From the IMG/VR virus record IMGVR_UViG_3300026255_000010: DNA of 46,336 nucleotides; one strand, 5' to 3'. Positions 769-43,707 of the stretch are shown in pieces. Positions within the stretch are counted from its first letter, which is position 1. Each line of letters begins with the position of its first letter. A program made the translations under genes and the position numbers. This stretch comes from a virus. The notes beneath the pieces are model-generated. The model worked only from the letters and a program-made list of their open reading frames with translations, was not told where the DNA came from and ran no database searches.

Positions 769-1832
769 ATGTTAGTACCAGTATTAGACACAAATCGCAA
801 CCCACTGATGCCAGTGAAACCAGCTTTGGCTAGATTGCTATTGACCCAGAAAAAGGCAAGTGCATACTGGAATAAGTTGGGAATATTCTGCATAATCTTG
901 CATAAGGTGGTAGATAACCCATCTTTACAGCAATTAGTTGTAGGTATCGATCCAGGCAGCAAATGGGAAGGATGGTCGGTTGTAGGAACGCAGGACACCA
1001 TCTTAAATGGCATGTCGGAAGCCGTAACCCATGTCAAAGATGCCGTGGAAGTCCGAAGAAACATGCGTCGAGCCAGAAGGCATAGGAAACTTTGGAGAAG
1101 AGAGGCCAGGTTCAATAATAGACTCAGAAATAAGGAAGCATTGCCTCCATCAACGATGGCTAGGTGGCAGGCCAAACTCAGGATCTTAATCCAGATCAAG
1201 AAGATTCTACCGATATCAGATGTGGTAATCGAGGATGTCAGAGCCGAAACCAGAAAAGGATGTGAACGATGGAATTCTAACTTTTCCCCAATCGAACAGG
1301 GTAAACAATGGCTATACAAGGAAATTGAGCAGCTTGGACTCAACTTGCATCTGAGACGAGGATACGAAACCAAAGAACTTCGGGAACATTTCGGTCTCAA
1401 GAAGACTTCCCAAAAAGATAAGCAGACTTTCTCATCCCATGCTGTAGATGCCTGGGTGATGGCAGCAAGCATTTCAGGAGCAATTAGTCCAACATACCAA
1501 GGCTTGCTCTATTGGATTCCAATTCGATTCCATAGGAGACAGTTGCATAGATTTGAGCCAAGTAAAGGCGGCGTCAGGAGACCATACGGAGGTACAAGAT
1601 CGATGGGATTGTCAAGAGGGACATTGGTCAAGCACATCAAATTTGGCAGGTGTTACATTGGCGGAACTCTGAAAGGTAGAGTTTCGTTGCATAGCCATAG
1701 AACAGGCAAAAGGGTCACACAAGGCGCAAAGATCCAGGATTGCCGGATCTTGACCAGGATATCCTGGCGGGGCACGCTCCTCCCACGAATTTATTCGTGG
1801 GTTTCCGCTACCCCCGCGCCCCACGGAGTTTC
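528..1832 (+). mobile_element. Non-autonomous IS200/IS605-family element carrying isrB and omegaRNA
   Basis: Subterminal hairpins CCCACGACTGAAGTCGTGGG (536-555) and CCCACGAATTTATTCGTGGG (1782-1801); on the minus strand the guide/cleavage tetramers CATG/TGAC and GAAA/TCAT fit TnpA(Y1) pairing rules, giving ends at 528 and 1832; no tnpA. Confidence 0.85.
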
Positions 1833-1836
1833 ATGA
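769..1836 (+). CDS. isrB: IsrB OMEGA RNA-guided nickase (PLMP + RRXRR/bridge helix + split RuvC, no HNH)
   Basis: N-terminal NPLMP, RuvC-I GIDPG, RRNMRRARRHR bridge helix, RuvC-II IEDV, RuvC-III HAVDA; 355 aa with no HNH/zinc-finger insert. Confidence 0.85.
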   Translation: MLVPVLDTNRNPLMPVKPALARLLLTQKKASAYWNKLGIFCIILHKVVDNPSLQQLVVGIDPGSKWEGWSVVGTQDTILNGMSEAVTHVKDAVEVRRNMRRARRHRKLWRREARFNNRLRNKEALPPSTMARWQAKLRILIQIKKILPISDVVIEDVRAETRKGCERWNSNFSPIEQGKQWLYKEIEQLGLNLHLRRGYETKELREHFGLKKTSQKDKQTFSSHAVDAWVMAASISGAISPTYQGLLYWIPIRFHRRQLHRFEPSKGGVRRPYGGTRSMGLSRGTLVKHIKFGRCYIGGTLKGRVSLHSHRTGKRVTQGAKIQDCRILTRISWRGTLLPRIYSWVSATPAPHGVS

Positions 1837-21565: not shown

Positions 21566-21853
21566 TCATGAAAACGTGTAGTGTCTATTTATTTTCTTTA
21601 TAATTGATAGAAATGGCAGATGCGATTCATATTTCTTCAGCTGGTTCATCAGCACGATCGAGCCCGTAAAAGTGATGTGCTGCTTACCTTCCAGTTCGAA
21701 GTGAATCGTGAGATATTGTGTGCCTTTCTTCTGGTGACTGTCTTTGATTTTGTATCCAATAACCAGGATTTCTTTGTTCAGGACCTCGTCGAGCCGGAGC
21801 TTCTCTCCTTCGAATGATTCTTCTTCGGCGAAGTCTCCGAACCGTTCAGGCAT
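21566..21853 (-). CDS. Small beta-rich protein coupled to the DGR RT (candidate non-Avd accessory protein)
   Basis: ATG overlaps the last RT codons; alternating hydrophobic strands (EILVIGYKIK, YLTIHFEL, HITFTGS). Confidence 0.7.
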   Translation of the reverse strand: MPERFGDFAEEESFEGEKLRLDEVLNKEILVIGYKIKDSHQKKGTQYLTIHFELEGKQHITFTGSIVLMNQLKKYESHLPFLSIIKKINRHYTFS

Positions 21854-22844
21854 TGGCAAGCCCCAGAGATTGCTTGAAGTTGAAGCTATTCGCCCATAGA
21901 AGCCATCCTTCTGTAGATGCTATTGAAGATCTGTATTGGTCCAGAGATATCTCTCCTCTGGCCAACTTGCGAGGAAGTTCCTGCATCCTGTGCTTGATTC
22001 GCTTTGCGGTGGATTTCCTGACAAGAATGTGGTTCGGAAAATGTCGGTATCCCAGAAAGTCTATGCCCTGCTGTACAGGGAATATATCATTCTTGCTCAA
22101 GGATAGATCAAGCCTTTCCGCAAGGAAACGCTCTATTTCCTCGGCCACCAGTCGCAGGAACCTCTTGTCTTGATGGAGCAGAACGAAGTCATCGCAGTAT
22201 CTTATGTAATACCTGATCTTCATTTCGTGCTTCAGGAACTGGTCTAGCTCGTTCATGTAGAGGTTGCCAAGCCATTGGCTTGTGTAGTTCCCAATCGGCA
22301 CGTTCTTGCCTCCTGGAATGCTGTAGATGATGTCCCCCAGCAGCCATAGAGTGTCCGGGCACTTGATTTTTCTCCGGACGATCCCAAATAGGATGTCGTG
22401 GTCTATCGATGGATAGAACTTCGAGATATCCATTTTCAGGCAATAAGCGCCGTGTCCTGCCGCTCTGATAAAGTCCATAGTTCTTCGACTTGCGGCATGA
22501 ATTCCTTTTCCGGTCCTGCATGCATACGAGTCATGGATGAACAGGCCGCTCCAAACTGGCTCAAGGACGTTCATCAAGGCATGTTGGACCACTCTGTCAG
22601 GATTGAAAGGCAGCTTGTAGATGATCCTCTGCTTCGGTTCGTAGATCATATTCTCCGTGTACGGAGATGTGGTGAAGGTCTTTTCAATCAGAGCGTCCAT
22701 GATATTGAAAATGTTCTCATCCAGATCATCATCGAACCGGCTGATAGTATTCTGCCAGCTCTTGCCTTTTCGGGCCTTTTTATATGCCAAGTAGATATTA
22801 TCCAGCTCAGTTATCTTATCCCAAAGATTTCCGTGTCGCTTCAT
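21846..22844 (-). CDS. DGR reverse transcriptase (332 aa)
   Basis: LKMDISKFYPSI, VPIGNYTSQWLGNLY and YIRYCDD motifs; adjacent TR/VR pair. Confidence 0.95.
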   Translation of the reverse strand: MKRHGNLWDKITELDNIYLAYKKARKGKSWQNTISRFDDDLDENIFNIMDALIEKTFTTSPYTENMIYEPKQRIIYKLPFNPDRVVQHALMNVLEPVWSGLFIHDSYACRTGKGIHAASRRTMDFIRAAGHGAYCLKMDISKFYPSIDHDILFGIVRRKIKCPDTLWLLGDIIYSIPGGKNVPIGNYTSQWLGNLYMNELDQFLKHEMKIRYYIRYCDDFVLLHQDKRFLRLVAEEIERFLAERLDLSLSKNDIFPVQQGIDFLGYRHFPNHILVRKSTAKRIKHRMQELPRKLARGEISLDQYRSSIASTEGWLLWANSFNFKQSLGLANA

Positions 22845-22968
22845 GATTATTTTTGAGAGAAGCAACGTTTTCTTGCGTTACTAGCTGCTCCTCTCCTCCG
22901 TTGTGTGTTTTGCCTTTCGACAAGGTCAGCGAGTCCAGCTAGGAGTTAGCTTCGCAACCAATCCTAGA

Positions 22969-23085
22969 TCTGTGACTGCGCGGCAACTGATATTCGAATT
23001 CGTATTCGACTGCTGATTATTCGCATTACGTGCCTGCGAACTGCAATTCGTCGCATTATTCCAATTACTGCCTGCAATAACTGCT
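22969..23085 (-). repeat. DGR template repeat (TR)
   Basis: 117 nt with ten AAT codons; differs from 23148-23264 at 30 positions, all TR adenines. Confidence 0.95.
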
Positions 23086-23137: not shown

Positions 23138-24481
23138 CTACTGTGGCTCCGCGACCGCGCGGCAACCGAAAGACGAATGCGCAACCGACCGCCGATAAAG
23201 CGCATAACGCGCCCGCGAACCGCAAGACGCCGCAGAAGTCCAATAACCGCCCGCAATAACCGCTGCCTGTGCCTGGCATGTTCCTTGACCGTAATGGGAC
23301 CCTCTTGTCCCGCTGATATCCTCGTAGCTGAACACAATTGCTGTGGCATAATCCGCTCCGGCTATGTAGCTCTGCCGATCCTGGAGCCAAGTCCACCAGA
23401 CTCCGGACATGTCCTCCAAGCCAATGTTTGAGACGATCCTTCTGGATGCAGTATCCACATGTCCACCAACGGTCGTCGGATTCGCGCTCCCGTAGATATT
23501 CGTCTCTTCTGGCGTGCCACTGTGGAGCTGCGCAAACTCCCAGTCTGTCATCATCCTAGCGCCTATATTTTTCAAGTCGTCTGCGAAATCGTAGAAATTC
23601 CGAGAGACAGTCGCGGCAGCTCCGAATACTGATGCGATAGATGCTCCTGTGCCGGAGAGGTGGTATATCGAGGCCCACAGAGGCGCATAATTCAGGCTGT
23701 CGAAATCGGTCGGCCCTCCCCAGGCAAACCCAGGAAGGAAGCGTCCATATGGCCGGTGCTTGAGATCTTGGATAGACCGAGGGATGATATCTCCTGCCAG
23801 GTAGCCTGTGAGGGGATGGCCGGAGATCGTGCCAACATTCGCGCATTCGCAGTGGAAGCAGCCGATTTTGCGGCTATTGTCTGCGGTGTAGCCAGCCGGG
23901 TAGGTGGTGGCGGCACTAAGGATGAGAACCGGAGTATAGCCACTTACTGGGACGCAGGCATAGATATAAAAGTCTTTGCCGGCACGGTTGGCCGGAGTGG
24001 CGTACTGCGAATCGTCCCAATTGGCCGCGGTGTCAAGGTCCAGCTCGACAGCGGCGGCCAGCTCGTAGGAATGGTTCCCGGCTCCCCCGACATTCACGAT
24101 CAGGTGACTAGGGGATACGAGCGTCCTCCGGTCTGCTGCCAGGCTGCTGCCCTTGTTCTTCCACATTCTATTGCGATTGTAATACGCATCTTGCCTCCCT
24201 GGGAGGCGATTCAGGAACGTCATAAAATCACCATCTTCAGATTCGTTGTAATATTCAGCCCAAGCCGATTCGTCTGCTTCATCGCAATCAGGCAGCCCTA
24301 GAACAAGATCGACACTGAACCTTTTTTGGCATATAGGGCAATCACAAGTCGAAGTATCTTCGCCCGGATCGACATCATAAGGCAGTGTATGGCCATTGGG
24401 GCAGACGACATCTGCCCCTACCAGGATGCTTGCCTCAAAACCAATTCCGCATACAGGACAATGATAAGATCCGGTTGCCAT
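23138..24481 (-). CDS. DGR target protein with C-terminal CLec/FGE-like fold and N-terminal Cys-rich extension
   Basis: GARMMTDWEF, GLEDMSGVWWTW, GGYW...GSR...GCRAV CLec motifs plus VR; second in-frame start with RBS at 24223. Confidence 0.9.
   Translation of the reverse strand: MATGSYHCPVCGIGFEASILVGADVVCPNGHTLPYDVDPGEDTSTCDCPICQKRFSVDLVLGLPDCDEADESAWAEYYNESEDGDFMTFLNRLPGRQDAYYNRNRMWKNKGSSLAADRRTLVSPSHLIVNVGGAGNHSYELAAAVELDLDTAANWDDSQYATPANRAGKDFYIYACVPVSGYTPVLILSAATTYPAGYTADNSRKIGCFHCECANVGTISGHPLTGYLAGDIIPRSIQDLKHRPYGRFLPGFAWGGPTDFDSLNYAPLWASIYHLSGTGASIASVFGAAATVSRNFYDFADDLKNIGARMMTDWEFAQLHSGTPEETNIYGSANPTTVGGHVDTASRRIVSNIGLEDMSGVWWTWLQDRQSYIAGADYATAIVFSYEDISGTRGSHYGQGTCQAQAAVIAGGYWTSAASCGSRARYALYRRSVAHSSFGCRAVAEPQ
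23148..23264 (-). repeat. DGR variable repeat (VR)
   Basis: 3' end of the target gene, encodes AVIAGGYWTSAASCGSRARYALYRRSVAHSSFGCRAVA. Confidence 0.95.
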
Positions 24482-24494
24482 CTATACCTCAGAC

Positions 24495-24597
24495 CGTACG
24501 AGCGTCCTACGGTTGGCTGCGGTATCGCTGCCCTTGTTCTTCCACATTCTATTGCGATTGTAGTAGCCGTCCTGCCTGGCTGGAAGGCGGTTCAAGA
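24495..24597 (-). repeat. Diverged duplicate of the 5' part of the DGR target core
   Basis: Matches ~24115-24217 with a 36-nt identical core; NRLPARQDGYYNRNRMWKNKGS vs NRLPGRQDAYYNRNRMWKNKGS. Confidence 0.85.
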
Positions 24598-24632
24598 CTC
24601 GTCGGGGGCAGGGGTAGCGGATTCCCGTCTCT

Positions 24633-24773
24633 TCAGAGGCGGGAGGAGCGTACCCCGCTGTTATCTCTTTCATCCAAGATCCGGTTAATGATTGTGTCAT
24701 AGCTTTCTCCTTTCCTACCAAGTTCTTTGAGTCGATCTCGTGTTTTCGTCTTTAGCTGTATACAGGTGTGCAT
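24633..24773 (-). CDS. Ribbon-helix-helix/CopG-type DNA-binding protein (46 aa, not in the ORF track)
   Basis: MHTCIQLKTKTRDRLKELGRKGESYDTIINRILDE, typical archaeal RHH pattern. Confidence 0.75.
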   Translation of the reverse strand: MHTCIQLKTKTRDRLKELGRKGESYDTIINRILDERDNSGVRSSRL

Positions 24774-24775
24774 AA

Positions 24776-24803
24776 GACTTAAATAGTACTAAGTACTATA
24801 TAT
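24776..24803. promoter_or_regulatory. Divergent promoters with palindromic operator
   Basis: ATAGTACT-A-AGTACTAT (24783-24799) between TTAAATA (plus) and TATATA (about 25 nt upstream of the RHH ATG). Confidence 0.6.
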
Positions 24804-24804
24804 C

Positions 24805-25150
24805 ATTGTCCATTGCTCAGAGCGGAACCAATGCCATAAGGCTTGGTTGGGCACTCCACCCTGATGAGAGATGCCAGGGAACAGACAACAGCTTAATCTG
24901 CTCGTACAAGCAAGCGAATCTAAGGACACGGAATCGGAAGCACGAGTCCGGGTAACTGGACTGGTGGATAGCATGATAGATGAAGCCTCTTCCCGTTCCA
25001 GGGCAGCCAGTACACCATCATCGTACCACATCCTAATCAGGGAGAAGAGTCACCCTGCCAGACGCGACACGACTTTTTGCGTAGTCGCAAGCCCTCTAGA
25101 CTTGGCGGCATGCCCGCCAATTCATTGGTGGGTAGGTGACGAATCCCATG
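24805..25150 (+). ncRNA. Candidate structured non-coding RNA (~340 nt)
   Basis: Dense run of hairpins, including a GNRA-capped AGTCCGG-GTAA-CTGGACT with a G-U pair, TTGGCGG/CCGCCAA, GCGAC/GTCGC, CAGGG/CCCTG, AACCAA/TTGGTT. Confidence 0.45.
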
Positions 25151-25151
25151 T

Positions 25152-25310
25152 TCAGCTCTCCAGGATAGCGAGGATAGCCGCAAGATCAGCTTTCATGAGG
25201 GCGATATCTGCTTTTACTGTGGCAAGATTAACAATCAGCTCGCCATCATCGTTTACAGCAACGCCTTTTGGCTCACCGTCAGACGATTTGAATCCATATA
25301 TTTTTGCCAT
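25152..25310 (-). CDS. Small hypothetical protein (52 aa, not in the ORF track)
   Basis: GGTGA RBS 5 nt before ATG; MAKIYGFKSSDGEPKGVAVNDDGELIVNLATVKADIALMKADLAAILAILES. Confidence 0.65.
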   Translation of the reverse strand: MAKIYGFKSSDGEPKGVAVNDDGELIVNLATVKADIALMKADLAAILAILES

Positions 25311-25329
25311 TTATATCACCTAGATCTTA

Positions 25330-26662
25330 GTGACTTCCTCCCATGACTAAAGTCATGGGCTTCCTCTTTCACTGACCTGCTTTTGCAGTGTCTCTAGAGG
25401 CTCTTCCCCTCAGTCCGAGGGTGCGAATGTTTAGGCTGGCATTGAGATCCCTATCCATCTCTAATCCACAGTTGGGACAAAGATGGGTTCGATCTGCCAG
25501 CGTCTTAGGTACCATTATACCACATTGGGAACATTTCTGAGATGTATATCTTGCATCTACCAGTTCTACCACTTTGCCAGCCTTTGCAGCTTTGCTCTGA
25601 GTGAACTGGATCAATTTTCCCCAAGCATGGTCTTGAATATGCTTTGCTAGATGGTGATTCTTAAGCATACCTGAAATGTTAAGGTTCTCGAATACAATTA
25701 GATCCGCGGAATCGACCAGTTTTCTAGATACCTGGTTGAGGAATTCGTCTCGGAGGTTCTGAATTCTCTTACTGATCTTAGCTACTTTCGCTTTAGCCTT
25801 CCGCCTGTTGGCCGATCCTTTCTTCTTTCTGGAAAGGGATCTTTGGGCCGCTGCAAGCGTCTCCTCTAACTGGATGTAGTATCGAGGGTATTGGATTGAC
25901 TCACCGGCAGACGTGGTTATTAGGCTCTTCAGTCCAACGTCTACCCCTATTATGGTTGTTGGCTCAACGATATGGGCCTCCTCGATTTCCGCCACTAAGA
26001 CGGCGTACCAATGGCCCAGGAGATCTTTCTTGATAGTGCAAGTCTTGATTTTGCCTTCCACTTCACGATGCTTGAAGATCCTGATGGTTCCGATCTTGGA
26101 AAGAGTTAGCTTTGAGCCTTCGATCTTGAACCCTGCTTGGGGGTAGGTGAAAGACTTATACCAGCCTCGGCCCTTAAACCTGGGGTAGCCCGGCTTCTCT
26201 CCTGCCTTGACACGTCTGAAGAAAGCCTTGAAAGACTTGTCTAGCCTCCTGAGCACGTCCTGGAGAACCTGGGAGAAGATTCCCTGCCATTTGCCTTCCT
26301 TCTTCTCAAGGGTTAAGGTGGCCGCTTGATCCTCATAGGATCTACTAATGCCTTCCATCTCATAGCAATTCTTCCTATCAGCCAGAGCGGTATTGTAGAG
26401 GTGCCTGCAAGTTTCCAGAGTGACATCTAACATAGCTTCCTGTTGCTTGTTAGGGTACATCCTGAATTTGTAAGCTGTCTTCATACCGCACCTTCTAAGC
26501 AAAACCTATATTAGGAGATGAGGATATATAGTTATTGGTGGTCGGGAACCGCTACCTTCTAAGCAATTGTAGCCTCTTTTCCGACTGCCCAATATTCACA
26601 GTGGGGTCGATTCATCCCACGGTTAAAACCGTGGGTTTTCTCTCCCCCTACACCCCATCATC
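25330..26662 (-). mobile_element. Non-autonomous IS605/IS1341-type element (TnpB-1), target motif TTAT
   Basis: Left-end hairpin 26616-26635 preceded by AAAA, inserted after TTAT; right-end hairpin 25340-25359 preceded by GAAG, ending TCAC. Confidence 0.85.
25369..26484 (-). CDS. tnpB: TnpB RNA-guided endonuclease
   Basis: HTH YKFRMYP, RuvC D (GVDVG), E (FENL), D (RDLNA), CSQCG/CPNCG zinc ribbon. Confidence 0.95.
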   Translation of the reverse strand: MKTAYKFRMYPNKQQEAMLDVTLETCRHLYNTALADRKNCYEMEGISRSYEDQAATLTLEKKEGKWQGIFSQVLQDVLRRLDKSFKAFFRRVKAGEKPGYPRFKGRGWYKSFTYPQAGFKIEGSKLTLSKIGTIRIFKHREVEGKIKTCTIKKDLLGHWYAVLVAEIEEAHIVEPTTIIGVDVGLKSLITTSAGESIQYPRYYIQLEETLAAAQRSLSRKKKGSANRRKAKAKVAKISKRIQNLRDEFLNQVSRKLVDSADLIVFENLNISGMLKNHHLAKHIQDHAWGKLIQFTQSKAAKAGKVVELVDARYTSQKCSQCGIMVPKTLADRTHLCPNCGLEMDRDLNASLNIRTLGLRGRASRDTAKAGQ

Positions 26663-29170: not shown

Positions 29171-29206
29171 CCACGTACCTCCGATTGTACTCCGAGAAGA
29201 GTTTAA

Positions 29207-29255
29207 GAGGAGGCCGCTCTCGGAAAAGCGGTTTTCGAGCCGTCGCTCTATCCTC
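29207..29255 (-). ncRNA. Three-way-junction RNA element (copy A)
   Basis: P1 GAGGA/TCCTC, P2 GAGC-GACG-GCTC, GAAAA linker, P3 CCGCT-TTTCCGAG-AGCGG. Confidence 0.45.
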
Positions 29256-29294
29256 ATGCCTCGTGCGCTGTCTTACTATTTAGCCTATTCGGCC

Positions 29295-40631: not shown

Positions 40632-40704
40632 TCGACCTCCTCAAGATCCATCCTGGCGCGTGCTTCGCATCCTGCTGGTATCGCCGGTCGGTCGGTGGGG
40701 GGCC

Positions 40705-41574
40705 TCATGCCTTGCCCTCTTGGATCTTTGCGACTTCTGCCTGCTCTTCTTTCAGCTCTTCCGAAGATTGCCAGTCCCCCCTAAGGAGCATGTCCGCTGC
40801 CCGGCTGTATGCCTTGCTTTCGCATACCCGCCCGGCAAACTGCCATTCCCGTGCTAGCTCCCTCCAGAGGGCTATCTTGGCCGGGAGAGGGACCAGGACG
40901 CTCTTGCCTTCGTCGGATATCCGTACCTTGATGGTCGCACCTTCCCTGAACTCTGGCATCCCATACTCATCGGTGCCCGTGACGATGCCCGGCTCGTCCA
41001 TCAGGACTTTCACTATCCAGTCCCAGGCCTTCTTAGCTAGGTACTCCTGTTTCCAGATGGACATACTGCTTTCCACTACACGATTGGCATTTCCATCCGG
41101 GATAGATGCTCGGACCACGACCTCCATGTATGTAGGAGTATGCTCGCGGCCAACGATCTGGAGAGATCCGCCTGCTTCCATCAGCGCGGCTATGTTGGTC
41201 TTGGCGCTGGCGGCCTTCCGGCCTCCTCCGGTGGAGTAGGTGGTCTTCTCGGTGCCCTGGCATTCCCTGACGGCCTCTAGGGCGCTTCCGGGGACACTTC
41301 CGGCCTGGGATCGGCTAGTTATCCGCCCAATGCCCCGAACGGCCAGATTTGAGGACTTGGGGGCGTTCTCGGCCAGATCCATCAGGATCTCGATCAGGCT
41401 ATCCAGGATCTCCGCATTGGAGCAGGAAGGCTTCCCATCCAGGAGGGTGATGACCACATCTCCGGGCATCAGGCAGAAGCCCTTCTCGTTGCTGGATACG
41501 GTCAGCTCGTGGCGGGCTGCGTACTCTTTGACGGCTGCGCCTAGCTCGTCCATTGTGATGGTTCTGGCTGCCAT
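40705..41574 (-). CDS. Possible single-strand annealing protein/recombinase
   Basis: CESKAYSRA resembles the A-x-TKA-x-x-RA motif of phage annealing proteins; lies beside nucleases. Confidence 0.35.
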   Translation of the reverse strand: MAARTITMDELGAAVKEYAARHELTVSSNEKGFCLMPGDVVITLLDGKPSCSNAEILDSLIEILMDLAENAPKSSNLAVRGIGRITSRSQAGSVPGSALEAVRECQGTEKTTYSTGGGRKAASAKTNIAALMEAGGSLQIVGREHTPTYMEVVVRASIPDGNANRVVESSMSIWKQEYLAKKAWDWIVKVLMDEPGIVTGTDEYGMPEFREGATIKVRISDEGKSVLVPLPAKIALWRELAREWQFAGRVCESKAYSRAADMLLRGDWQSSEELKEEQAEVAKIQEGKA

Positions 41575-41987: not shown

Positions 41988-43242
41988 GTGACTACTCCCG
42001 CCAATTAATTAGCGGGCATCTAGGCTCTCGCCACAGACTGTAATCCCAGTCTGAGAATGTTTTTAGCTGCATTGAGATCTCTGTCCATGACTAGGCCACA
42101 TTTCGGGCAGTTATGGACTCGTTCTGAGAGATCCTTTTTGACTATCGAACCACAGCTTGAGCACATCTGAGATGTATATGCAGGATTAACCATGACCACT
42201 TTACGACCGGCACTTTCAGCCTTGTACGTAACGTAAGTCCTGAATCTATTCCAGCTTGCATCAAGCACGCTCTTGGCCATGTGAGGTTTCTTTTCAATGA
42301 GATTCTTGATATCTATATCTTCAAGGCAGATTATGCCATAATCATTGACTATCCGATGACTTAGTTGATGAGCAAAGTTATCTCTGAGATTACCAAGTCG
42401 TTCATAGATATGACTGACTTTCTTGGCAGCTTTCTTGCGTTCTGGTGATCTATGGGGGAGCTTGTCTTTCTTACTCTGCGCTGTGGCAAGCTTTTTTTCA
42501 CAAGATGCCAAATATCTTTGATTCTCTATAAATGTTCCATCTGAGAATACTGCGAAATTGGATATTCCCACGTCTATGCCTACCGCTTTCTCGGAATCTG
42601 GTACTGCGTCATTTGGTGCATCTTCTACTAAGAACGAGACATACCATTTTTTGGTAGATGATCTTTTTATGGTCAGCCTCTTAATGGTTCCATCAACTTT
42701 CCTATGCAACCAGACCTTAATATCTCCGATTTTGGAGAGATGCAAAACGTTATCCTTGAGCGCGAAACCACTTTGAGGATACGTTAAGCTGTCATACCAG
42801 TTTCTGCCTTTGAACCTTGGATAACCTGGTTCTTCTCCTGCTTTGACCCTTCGGAAGAACGCTTTGAAAGCCAGGTCTACCCTTTGAACAGCTTCCTGAA
42901 GAACCTGAGAATAGACTTCCGATAGCTCAGGTTTGGATTCTTTCCAGATAGGCAGCATCCTCTTAGATTCAAAGTAGCTTATAGATCGATCTTCATTCTC
43001 CCACGCATTCTTCCGTAGAGCAAGCGTCTCGTTGTAGACCCACCTACATAGATCAAGTTGCCTATTTAATATTGCAACTTGCGACTTTGTGGGCTTCAAT
43101 CTATAACGAAACACTTTAGGCATTATCAGTTAATAGGCTTCATTACCTAATATAGTTGTTGGTCCACAGGAAATAACAGCGGGGCACGATTCATCCCACC
43201 TCTGAAGAGGTGGGGATTCTCTGCCCCCGCACCCCGTCCTTA
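41988..43242 (-). mobile_element. Non-autonomous IS605/IS1341-type element (TnpB-2), target motif TTAG
   Basis: Left-end hairpin 43195-43214 preceded by AATC, inserted after TTAG; right-end hairpin 41997-42016 preceded by GATG, ending TCAC. Confidence 0.85.
42020..43123 (-). CDS. tnpB: TnpB RNA-guided endonuclease
   Basis: FRYRLKP HTH, GIDVG, CLEDI, RDLNA RuvC triad, CSSCG/CPKCG. Confidence 0.95.
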   Translation of the reverse strand: MPKVFRYRLKPTKSQVAILNRQLDLCRWVYNETLALRKNAWENEDRSISYFESKRMLPIWKESKPELSEVYSQVLQEAVQRVDLAFKAFFRRVKAGEEPGYPRFKGRNWYDSLTYPQSGFALKDNVLHLSKIGDIKVWLHRKVDGTIKRLTIKRSSTKKWYVSFLVEDAPNDAVPDSEKAVGIDVGISNFAVFSDGTFIENQRYLASCEKKLATAQSKKDKLPHRSPERKKAAKKVSHIYERLGNLRDNFAHQLSHRIVNDYGIICLEDIDIKNLIEKKPHMAKSVLDASWNRFRTYVTYKAESAGRKVVMVNPAYTSQMCSSCGSIVKKDLSERVHNCPKCGLVMDRDLNAAKNILRLGLQSVARA

Positions 43243-43707
43243 CTAACTTACTATGGAGTTTACGGCTATCGTTTGACCCCGTAAGTTTTCCACTTACACC
43301 GCCCTTACGGTCCTTACTGCCGTCCTCTTCCAGCGTAACTATCGCGTCGAGTCCCTTGAATCTGTCATAGTCTTTCAAGACCAGTCGTACCTTTTGGACG
43401 TTCTTGTCCTCTTCTTTGAGCGTGACCTTCTCAACATCAAATCCAGGTAGCTTCTGCAACAGGCCGGTTTTTCCATTCTCCCCCTGCACGAGCCGCAAGA
43501 TAAAATCGGTAGACAATCGCTCCGGGTCATCGGCCAGGGCTTGCTTGTGCTCCTCCAGCACCCGGCAAGTGTCGTGGCAATACCACTGAGCCCTGTGCGC
43601 CTCCTGCCTTTCCGGGTGGGCCTCTGCGGATGCCTTTCGTCTGGCCAGGATCTCCTCACGGTGTGCATGGTAGTATTCCCGGTGATAGGCTCGCAGCTCT
43701 TCTGGAG

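Follow-up and report, generated by a model that had tools for sequence, protein, structure and literature searches.

A non-autonomous IS200/IS605-type element of a Methanothrix-type tailed virus pairs an RHH-like gene with a structured RNA that may act as an orphan omega-RNA

Introduction

The guide RNAs of TnpB (omega-RNAs) have a universal layout, made of three consecutive stem-loops and a nexus loop that pairs with the 3' end of the scaffold (10.1101/2023.11.20.567912). Palindrome-associated transposable elements (PATEs) encoding omega-RNAs that are used in trans have been noted, for example in Geobacillus stearothermophilus (Meers et al., 10.1101/2023.03.14.532601). In archaea, ribbon-helix-helix (RHH)/MazE proteins are known to be associated with TnpB and were proposed to form toxin-antitoxin pairs with it (Altae-Tran et al. 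2023, PMC10691335). Here we analyze a locus of the IMG/VR virus record IMGVR_UViG_3300026255_000010, whose whole stretch of 46,336 nucleotides is referred to as the window. The locus, at window positions 24596-25140, holds an RHH-like gene and, divergent from it, a structured RNA that we term X.

The initial annotation took the RNA for a novel viral non-coding RNA that might be linked to the neighboring diversity-generating retroelement (DGR). We find that a structured non-coding RNA does lie beside a divergent promoter shared with the RHH-like gene, yet it is not a free-standing viral class, as it is part of a 545-bp IS200/IS605-type element. With moderate confidence, we favor the reading that X is an orphan omega-RNA gene, controlled by the RHH-like protein, within a non-autonomous IS200/IS605 element, and that a TnpB of the host would use it in trans.

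Results

A 545-bp insertion has the ends of an IS200/IS605-type element

The window virus is a Methanothrix-type tailed virus; this tailed archaeal virus has a relative, Caudoviricetes sp. vir525 (BK063673.1; host listed as Methanosarcinales). Window segments 24498-24594 and 25142-25228 match the contiguous vir525 segments 40653-40749 and 40752-40838. Homology to vir525 halts at window 24594 and restarts at 25142 (24594/25142 corresponds to vir525 40749/40752), and the empty site of vir525 reads TTCAG + AAATCCC.... By this alignment, window 24595/6-25140/1 is an insertion relative to vir525 that interrupts the ancestral DGR target gene at its third codon. The features that delimit it are:

24591-24595, plus strand: TTCAA, transposon-adjacent motif (TAM), directly 5' of the left end
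24596-24675, plus strand: left end (LE), which begins GACTCGTC and overlaps the 3' end of the RHH open reading frame (ORF)
24624-31 / 24636-43, plus strand: LE hairpin, CCCGTCTC / GAGGCGGG, then GAGCGTACCCCGC
25113-20:25125-32, plus strand: right-end (RE) hairpin, then TAGGTGAC; the element ends GGTGAC at 25140

Judged by these ends, window 24596-25140 is a 545-bp non-autonomous element of the IS200/IS605 family, PATE-like and lacking tnpA and tnpB. Subterminal hairpins are present at both ends and the junctions are clean against vir525, with no terminal inverted repeats and no target duplication, as in PATEs. The LE aligns with the LEs of the TnpB-2 insertion sequence (IS), the IsrB element, the TnpB-1 IS and the host copy L077, and the RE aligns with the REs of the window's three other IS200/IS605-type elements. 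TTCAA precedes the left end in 9/9 homologous copies lacking tnpB and in 8/8 copies carrying the gene for a third TnpB, TnpB-3 (17/17 altogether; TCAA in one copy).

Neither the window nor vir525 encodes a Y1 TnpA transposase. All five tested host genomes that carry copies encode Y1 TnpA (1-7 genes each), and about 45 copies with differing flanks are found in viral contigs and Methanothrix genomes. Together these results describe an element that has no transposase of its own, could find Y1 TnpA in trans and occupies multiple sites.

Homologous copies fall into four classes

RHH-linked IMG/VR loci align to window 24602-25103 at ~64-66% identity. A conserved 22-mer, GACTTTTTGCGTAG..GCAAGC (window 25071), is shared by 7 viral contigs and ~40 Methanothrix/Methanotrichaceae loci. 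We sorted the copies into four classes (a, b, c1 and c2) by their content upstream of the 22-mer:

Class a: full-length TnpB-3 (394 aa; OrfB_IS605 and Cas12f1-like_TNB domains), with the ORF ending at the TAG in the motif
Class b: RHH gene, promoter and a ~330-nt RNA
Classes c1 and c2: LE, TATA box and RNA, no RHH gene; first codons of tnpB-3 retained

TnpB-3 is 25-28% identical to TnpB-1 and TnpB-2. The copies of classes b, c1 and c2, which lack tnpB, have common ends, and the window copy is closest to class c2. Class c visibly derives from tnpB-3 by deletion.

X is a structured RNA supported by covariation

On comparative grounds, X is a plus-strand structured non-coding RNA of ~335 nt that is predicted to run from the divergent promoter through the RE. 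Upstream of its 3' module, X comprises two domains:

24805-24914, plus strand: X 5' domain, whose helices covary between classes b, c1 and c2
24812-17:24909-13, plus strand: 5' closing helix ATTGCT:AGCAA (covariation)
24820-25:24898-903, plus strand: 5' closing helix GAGCGG:CTGCTC (covariation)
24826-48 and 24859-79, plus strand: 5' domain hairpins
24849-54, plus strand: invariant GGGCAC, in the 5' domain
24880-92, plus strand: conserved AACAGACAACAGC, in the 5' domain
24929-24999, plus strand: X central domain, a long helix (24929-40:24987-99) around a GTAA-capped hairpin (24946-24961)

The 5' domain forms a three-way junction with the invariant GGGCAC and a GAnAGACnG-type motif. A multibranch 5' domain closed by TTGTC/GACAA, as first proposed, is not what covaries; its closure is formed by 24812-17:24909-13 and 24820-25:24898-903. 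Since the MAFFT alignment left c1, c2 and the window out of register at the 5' closing helices, these helices were read directly from the sequences.

A single-sequence fold of 24805-25150 did not go beyond chance (z -1.8 on the plus strand, -2.2 on the minus strand), and it was the comparative covariation that decided for the structured plus-strand RNA of the initial annotation. Class c and the window (n=11), scored against a curated structure that includes the pseudoknot, had 93.4% of cells paired and 35/66 pairs compensatory. None of 500 shuffles was as good, and controls in which the structure was slid along the alignment reached 34-43% paired. The covariation check on homologues that had been suggested for this RNA thus came out in its favor. 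The central-domain helices (nos. 3 and 4) were 99-100% paired in the same set, with 11/17 pairs compensatory, and the hairpin at 24946-24961 has a GNRA loop in all classes. Likewise, 39/69 predicted pairs were compensatory in class b (n=12). Together these alignments strongly support the predicted structure of X by covariation in more than 30 homologues. RNAalifold also proposed a long-range helix, GGCAC:GTGCC (A3 columns 52-59:217-224), which we rejected: the window and class b break it and keep the nexus pairing.

The plus strand had been preferred initially for its G-U pairs and its GTAA loop, and this preference holds. Hairpin 24946-24961 is real, GNRA loops (GTAA, GCAA, GAAA) and invariant G-U pairs occur on the plus strand only, and consensus folding energies are better on the plus than on the minus strand (-57.3 vs -36.0 and -70.6 vs -52.4 kcal/mol). 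The similarity of the RE to the IsrB element had suggested an IscB/IsrB omega-RNA (HEARO) on the minus strand. This candidate was dropped: the minus strand gives the weaker consensus fold, the GNRA loops occur on the plus strand, and Rfam gives no match.

It is extremely unlikely that the region codes for protein, through either the plus-strand ORF 24871-25323 or the minus-strand ORF 24789-25031. These frames are open for 150 and 80 codons, and most homologues have long stop-free stretches on the minus strand, but the stop-free lengths are as in shuffles (a fraction of 0.10-0.23 was at least as long). Among close relatives the longest frames lie in different phases and cannot be aligned in translation; indels of 1 or 2 nt are frequent, and there are no Pfam matches. 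Neither ORF is conserved as a reading frame, so the coding alternative that had been put forward as a test of the RNA falls away.

Searches of the window and 7 homologous loci against Rfam, at gathering and permissive thresholds, gave no match for X, in line with the first impression that it belongs to no assignable family. X is a covariation-supported RNA family of ~335 nt not represented in Rfam. We also rejected a group I intron or IStron: Intron_gpI has no match at E <= 10 in the window or at E <= 1 in the homologues, and the element ends in C, not G.

A covariance model of class b, which missed class c and the window under default filters and worked only with filters off, aligns the central and nexus parts of the window copy (16 bits, E 1.6e-5). 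The model also picks out, within the TnpB-3 ORF and 410-500 nt ahead of the motif, an element that resembles the 5' domain (E 3.9e-5). This element (L060 3411-3500; same place in L037, L048 and L070) lies within coding sequence and bears the GGGCAC three-way-junction signature. The model found no match in more distant TnpB-3 relatives, and neither class b nor TnpB-3 was recovered by an nhmmer profile built from the 5' part of class c. Either the RNA of TnpB-3 may be unusually long, or X may have been built from pieces of tnpB-3 and then selected as RNA.

The 3' end of X is a module of omega-RNA type

25002-25140, plus strand: omega-RNA-type 3' module of X (33-sequence alignment; homology to the TnpB-3 3' region)
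25002-06:25055-59, plus strand: nexus stem, 100% paired, two compensatory pairs in the window
25049-54:25135-40, plus strand: pseudoknot GTCACC:GGTGAC, from nexus loop to scaffold 3' end
25064-88, plus strand: stem-loop 2, which contains the TnpB-3 stop-codon motif GACTTTTTGCGTAG
~25096-25116, plus strand: window-specific insert of 21 nt, separating stem-loop 2 from the RE hairpin
25141-25160, plus strand: flanking DNA, putative guide GAATCCCATGTTCAGC..., antisense to the last codons of a 52-aa ORF (25152-25310)

The last ~95 nt of X are homologous to the 3' end of the TnpB-3 genes, which form a Methanothrix clade, and to their RE. In about 15 Methanothrix loci the GACTTTTTGCGTAG..GCAAGC motif, the RE hairpin and GGTAGTTGAC directly overlap the ends of full-length TnpB-3 ORFs. 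We assign the 3' module to the omega-RNA type because its layout matches the published one and because the same module overlaps the 3' end of tnpB-3 in class a. The 3' end of the scaffold coincides with the RE of the element, consecutive stem-loops, the last of them the RE hairpin, are combined with a nexus pseudoknot, and the TAM is conserved. No 3' end of a tnpB ORF is overlapped in the window, whereas such an overlap exists in the homologous host copies. X showed no meaningful similarity when aligned directly to the omega-RNA and 3' region of the neighboring TnpB-1. By analogy with TnpB, the flanking DNA would be transcribed as the guide.

Across 33 distinct sequences of all classes the 3' module is 97.2% paired, with 9/23 pairs compensatory and 0/500 shuffles as good. 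The initial annotation had rightly suspected a 3' pseudoknot, and it covaries; its first arm is at 25049-54, and its second arm at 25135-40 lies ~10 nt from where it had been placed. The conserved element, and with it X, ends at 25140 rather than at 25150 as first drawn.

We also asked whether the window copy could be a dead relic, that is, an internally deleted IS of TnpB-3 type whose RNA is unused and whose conservation reflects recent descent and the function of other copies. Such a relic would fit with the 21-nt insert that this copy alone has near its RE, with the lack of a cognate tnpB in the virus and with the visible derivation of class c from tnpB-3 by deletion. Nevertheless, the window copy keeps every comparative helix (hairpin 24826-48 is not scorable, as the alignment is out of register there), and its RHH ORF and promoter are intact. 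When threaded on the window copy, the comparative structure costs only ~8 kcal/mol relative to the unconstrained optimum (-105.8 vs -114.1 kcal/mol). Furthermore, the pseudoknot and the nexus carry compensatory double changes that are private to the window, namely C-G in the pseudoknot (G-U or A-U elsewhere) and C-G and A-U in the nexus, which therefore point to selection for pairing in the window copy's own lineage. We regard a dead relic as quite unlikely.

A divergent promoter is shared by X and the RHH-like gene

24633-24773, minus strand: RHH-like (DUF7557) small DNA-binding protein, 46 aa, ATG at 24773
24774-24804, no strand assigned: divergent promoter with crossed TATA boxes (sequence and vir525 cassette)
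24779-24785, plus strand: TTAAATA box for the plus transcript, predicted start ~24806-24810
24797-24803, minus strand: TATATAT box for the RHH gene, ~25 nt from its ATG
24783-24799, no strand assigned: 17-bp palindrome ATAGTACT-A-AGTACTAT, overlapping both TATA boxes, a candidate RHH operator

The 46-aa RHH gene of the initial annotation is present as the ORF at 24633-24773. It matches Pfam DUF7557 at E 4e-8 (33 bits, cut-off 25) and RHH_10 weakly, at 15 bits, below the cut-off of 27. No solved relative of the protein was found by sequence. Homologues are 48-83% identical, with conservation up to residue ~36, and intact ones occur in 9 viral contigs and in 24/105 Methanotrichaceae genomes.

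The palindrome lies exactly where it was first described (24783-24799), and the two TATA-like boxes are present as well (TTAAATA at 24779-85 and TATATAT at 24797-803). In vir525 the same RHH/promoter cassette is present: a 44-aa RHH homologue is divergent from TnpB-1, the intergenic sequence is nearly identical, and TTAAATA lies 24 nt upstream of the tnpB ATG. The cassette also stands 24 nt before the tnpB ATG in two host loci. This geometry therefore argues for crossed promoters, for likely leaderless mRNAs and for a plus-transcript start at ~24806-24810, as estimated from archaeal promoter spacing; the RHH mRNA is probably leaderless. The spacing of the TATA boxes is constant across all RHH-bearing copies.

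Since the window holds 12 perfect palindromes of this class, five of them IS-end hairpins, the position of the palindrome weighs more than its existence. A scan of viral contigs with the 17-mer CATAAGACTTAAATAGT gave mostly chance matches and one true relative only. As a separate observation, in TnpB-3 elements (e.g. L060, L063; cf. L061-type class c copies) the TATA box preceding tnpB-3 is surrounded by a long inverted repeat, TTCACCCAAG...TTGGGTGAA; this repeat is a possible operator, with no RHH gene nearby.

The RHH-like gene has different partners in different loci. It faces TnpB-1 in two host loci and a vir525-like contig, and X-like RNAs in at least 8 host loci and most viral contigs. 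In two further IMG/VR loci (L025 and L026) RHH homologues face other non-coding stretches of ~255-330 nt, internally unlike X, that end in IS200/IS605 RE hairpins (GGGAGGAGTTCAC and GGTGGTTGAC). In L027 the RHH gene faces a 171-aa ORF.

Weighing the role of X

Our favored reading, an RHH-controlled orphan omega-RNA used in trans, can be laid out as follows. The element inserted 3' of TTCAA, within the third codon of the ancestral DGR target gene. Its compact bidirectional archaeal promoter would direct a leaderless RHH mRNA leftward and X rightward, through the RE into the flank. X would act as an orphan omega-RNA, loaded in trans by a TnpB from the host or from a co-resident element. The TnpB-X complex would then cut empty TTCAA + GAATCCCATG... 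sites, and recombination would restore the element there, while a Y1 TnpA of the host would mobilize it. The RHH protein would bind the palindrome over both TATA boxes and thereby repress its own gene and X.

Several observations weigh against this reading. Neither the window nor vir525 encodes TnpB-3. The motif is present in 18 and a close TnpB-3 in 14 of the 105 genomes of the family, with an overlap of 10, and several genomes with copies lacking tnpB, including one complete chromosome, have no close intact TnpB-3. Five of five tested genomes of the latter kind hold intact relatives that are 31-37% identical to TnpB-3, one of which has an X-like 3' module downstream, and use of X by a TnpB in trans appears plausible from these relatives. 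The 21-nt insert before the RE hairpin could impair the window copy. The 5' and central domains, ~240 nt of X, exceed the canonical omega-RNA scaffold, and their structure is strongly conserved. The AF2 monomer of the RHH-like protein has helices at residues 4-18 and 25-41 (pLDDT 75) and its N-terminal strand is not resolved. Finally, the full 17-bp palindrome is private to the window copy and only its outer ATAGT/ACTAT arms, which lie in the TATA regions, are conserved; for this reason it is no more than a plausible candidate for the RHH operator.

The extra ~240 nt raise the question of whether guiding TnpB is the main job of X. X could instead be a functional RNA that retains its omega-RNA-like 3' end as transposon RE only, a reading that we find doubtful. 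Its 5' three-way junction (GGGCAC) and GNRA central domain would then carry another activity, for instance as a regulatory or decoy RNA that titrates host TnpB, as the RNA partner of RHH or as a ribozyme-like RNA, each a tentative suggestion. Upstream of the nexus the classes share an architecture with almost no common sequence. Copies lacking tnpB roughly equal TnpB-3 copies in number, and they are also present where the genome has no close TnpB-3. Moreover, RHH faces such RNAs more often than tnpB, and at least two RNAs of unrelated sequence (L025, L026) are likewise long, end in an RE and are paired with RHH. However, conservation of the nexus, the pseudoknot and stem-loop 2 goes beyond the RE hairpin and corresponds to what TnpB needs, not TnpA. 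The 5'-domain-like element inside the TnpB-3 gene links that domain to the RNA of TnpB-3, and no known ribozyme or RNA family is matched.

A bolder version of the orphan omega-RNA reading, which we consider improbable, is that the X family represents a new class of expanded stand-alone guide-RNA genes: freed from the nuclease gene, placed under an RHH-regulated promoter and endowed with ~240 nt of selected extra structure that adds capacity. If this were true, the added capacity might lie in recruiting distant TnpBs in trans, in self-processing or stabilization, or in a virus-borne decoy that reprograms or titrates host TnpB. X would then be a natural intermediate between transposon-fixed guides and the separately encoded guide genes of CRISPR type.

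The element and the neighboring DGR

21846-22865, minus strand: DGR reverse transcriptase
22969-23085, minus strand: DGR template repeat (TR)
23148-23264, minus strand: DGR variable repeat (VR)
23138-24481, minus strand: Mtd-like DGR target gene

The position of the cassette next to these genes had suggested a novel virus-specific non-coding RNA, under RHH control, that regulates or serves the DGR. X adjoins the DGR, and the RHH-side transcript would head to the target gene with no obvious oligo-T stop in between. The cassette, however, is mobile and vir525 lacks it at its DGR; this empty site largely refutes the idea. X itself is directed away from the DGR and has no similarity to the TR or VR. 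There is no specific tie to the DGR because dozens of copies occupy unrelated sites in Methanothrix chromosomes and other viral contigs, so we judge a dedicated DGR function very unlikely. By these comparisons the sole connection of the element to the DGR is the position of the insertion; a read-through or polar effect from the RHH promoter on the target gene is possible.

Two copies of the 5' end of the DGR target gene, 81% identical, are present (window 24116-24216 vs 24497-24597). The upstream copy, which adjoins the insertion, is what remains of the ancestral start (79-aa ORF 24482-24721). The live target gene has a new in-frame N-terminal extension of ~85 aa (24224-24481) with CxxC/CPxGH zinc-ribbon-like motifs, which precedes an internal MTFLNRLP matching the vir525 start MGFLNRLP. 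Insertion of the element would account for the rearranged 5' end of the target gene, and a supposed DGR regulator is thereby removed.

Other IS200/IS605-type elements of the window

~25330-26660, minus strand: TnpB-1 IS
41988-43246, minus strand: TnpB-2 IS
769-1836, plus strand: ORF of an IsrB-like gene (RRXRR domain E 4e-43, no HNH match); element ends near 525 and 1848

The TnpB-1 and TnpB-2 proteins are 43% identical. The IsrB-like element has IS200/IS605-type hairpins at both ends; the omega-RNA presumed to lie upstream of its ORF (~525-768) is not matched by the HEARO model of Rfam. With the TnpB-1 RE ending at 25330, the guide of that element would span the ribosome-binding site and the start of the 52-aa ORF at 25152-25310, which sits between two convergent right ends 189 bp apart. 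In vir525, a solo stretch at 55659-55753 is 79% identical to the RE/omega-RNA region of TnpB-1 (window 25329-25421), with no adjoining tnpB. The idea that an inversion links the palindrome to the TATA box upstream of TnpB-1 (repeat I7) was dropped, as the element has its own LE, RE and empty site. The sole Rfam match of the window above its gathering score is an int-alpA RNA at 29190-29258 on the minus strand (37.1 vs 35.8 bits).

Discussion

If the favored reading is correct, Methanothrix, a globally important methanogen, and its viruses harbor omega-type guide RNAs that often come without a nuclease gene and are under a dedicated, probably repressible promoter. Such RNAs would bear on how guide RNAs and nucleases came to be encoded separately on the way to CRISPR, and on how non-autonomous IS200/IS605 elements persist. 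The locus also suggests another reading of the RHH-TnpB association than a toxin-antitoxin pair, and it provides a predicted TAM (TTCAA) and scaffold for an uncharacterized archaeal TnpB clade.

Among described systems, the element resembles PATEs in being short, in having LE and RE hairpins with no transposase or nuclease gene, and in an RE-side omega-RNA scaffold that would need TnpB and TnpA in trans; as in PATEs, its ends and TAM are common to tnpB-bearing elements of the same genomes. Unlike PATEs, it is found in Methanothrix and viral hosts, is known from sequence, and has an RHH gene, its own bidirectional promoter and a ~335-nt RNA with two extra covarying domains.

X shares with the TnpB omega-RNA (reRNA) of IS200/IS605 and IS607 elements, such as ISDra2, a 3' end that is the RE, a guide in the flank, three stem-loops and a nexus pseudoknot (10.1101/2023.11.20.567912), and where tnpB-3 is present, the final ~100 nt of its ORF, stop codon included, are shared with the scaffold. 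It differs in that the window has no overlapping tnpB, the nexus loop of X has two inserted hairpins, and no Rfam sequence matches.

As in the RHH/MazE-TnpB loci, a small RHH-type gene stands beside tnpB in archaea and viruses (vir525 and the two host loci with TnpB-1). In contrast to those loci, the genes are divergent with a shared promoter rather than co-directional, most RHH copies face an RNA gene, and the window element has no tnpB; the TnpB-1 of vir525 has a canonical DRD RuvC-III motif, not a rearranged site. With its shared divergent promoter and, in most cases, an RNA gene on the other side, RHH fits the role of a transcriptional regulator better than that of an antitoxin of a cis-encoded TnpB.

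Like IStrons, in which a group I intron is fused to IS605/IS607 (10.1101/2023.11.20.567912), the locus has a large structured RNA in an IS200/IS605-type element that ends in an omega-RNA/RE; unlike in IStrons, there is no group I intron match, the terminal nucleotide is C and not G, and the RNA would start at an internal promoter, not at the left end. Placed among these systems, X appears as a real RNA of a broadly known kind, with a well-supported RNA expansion.

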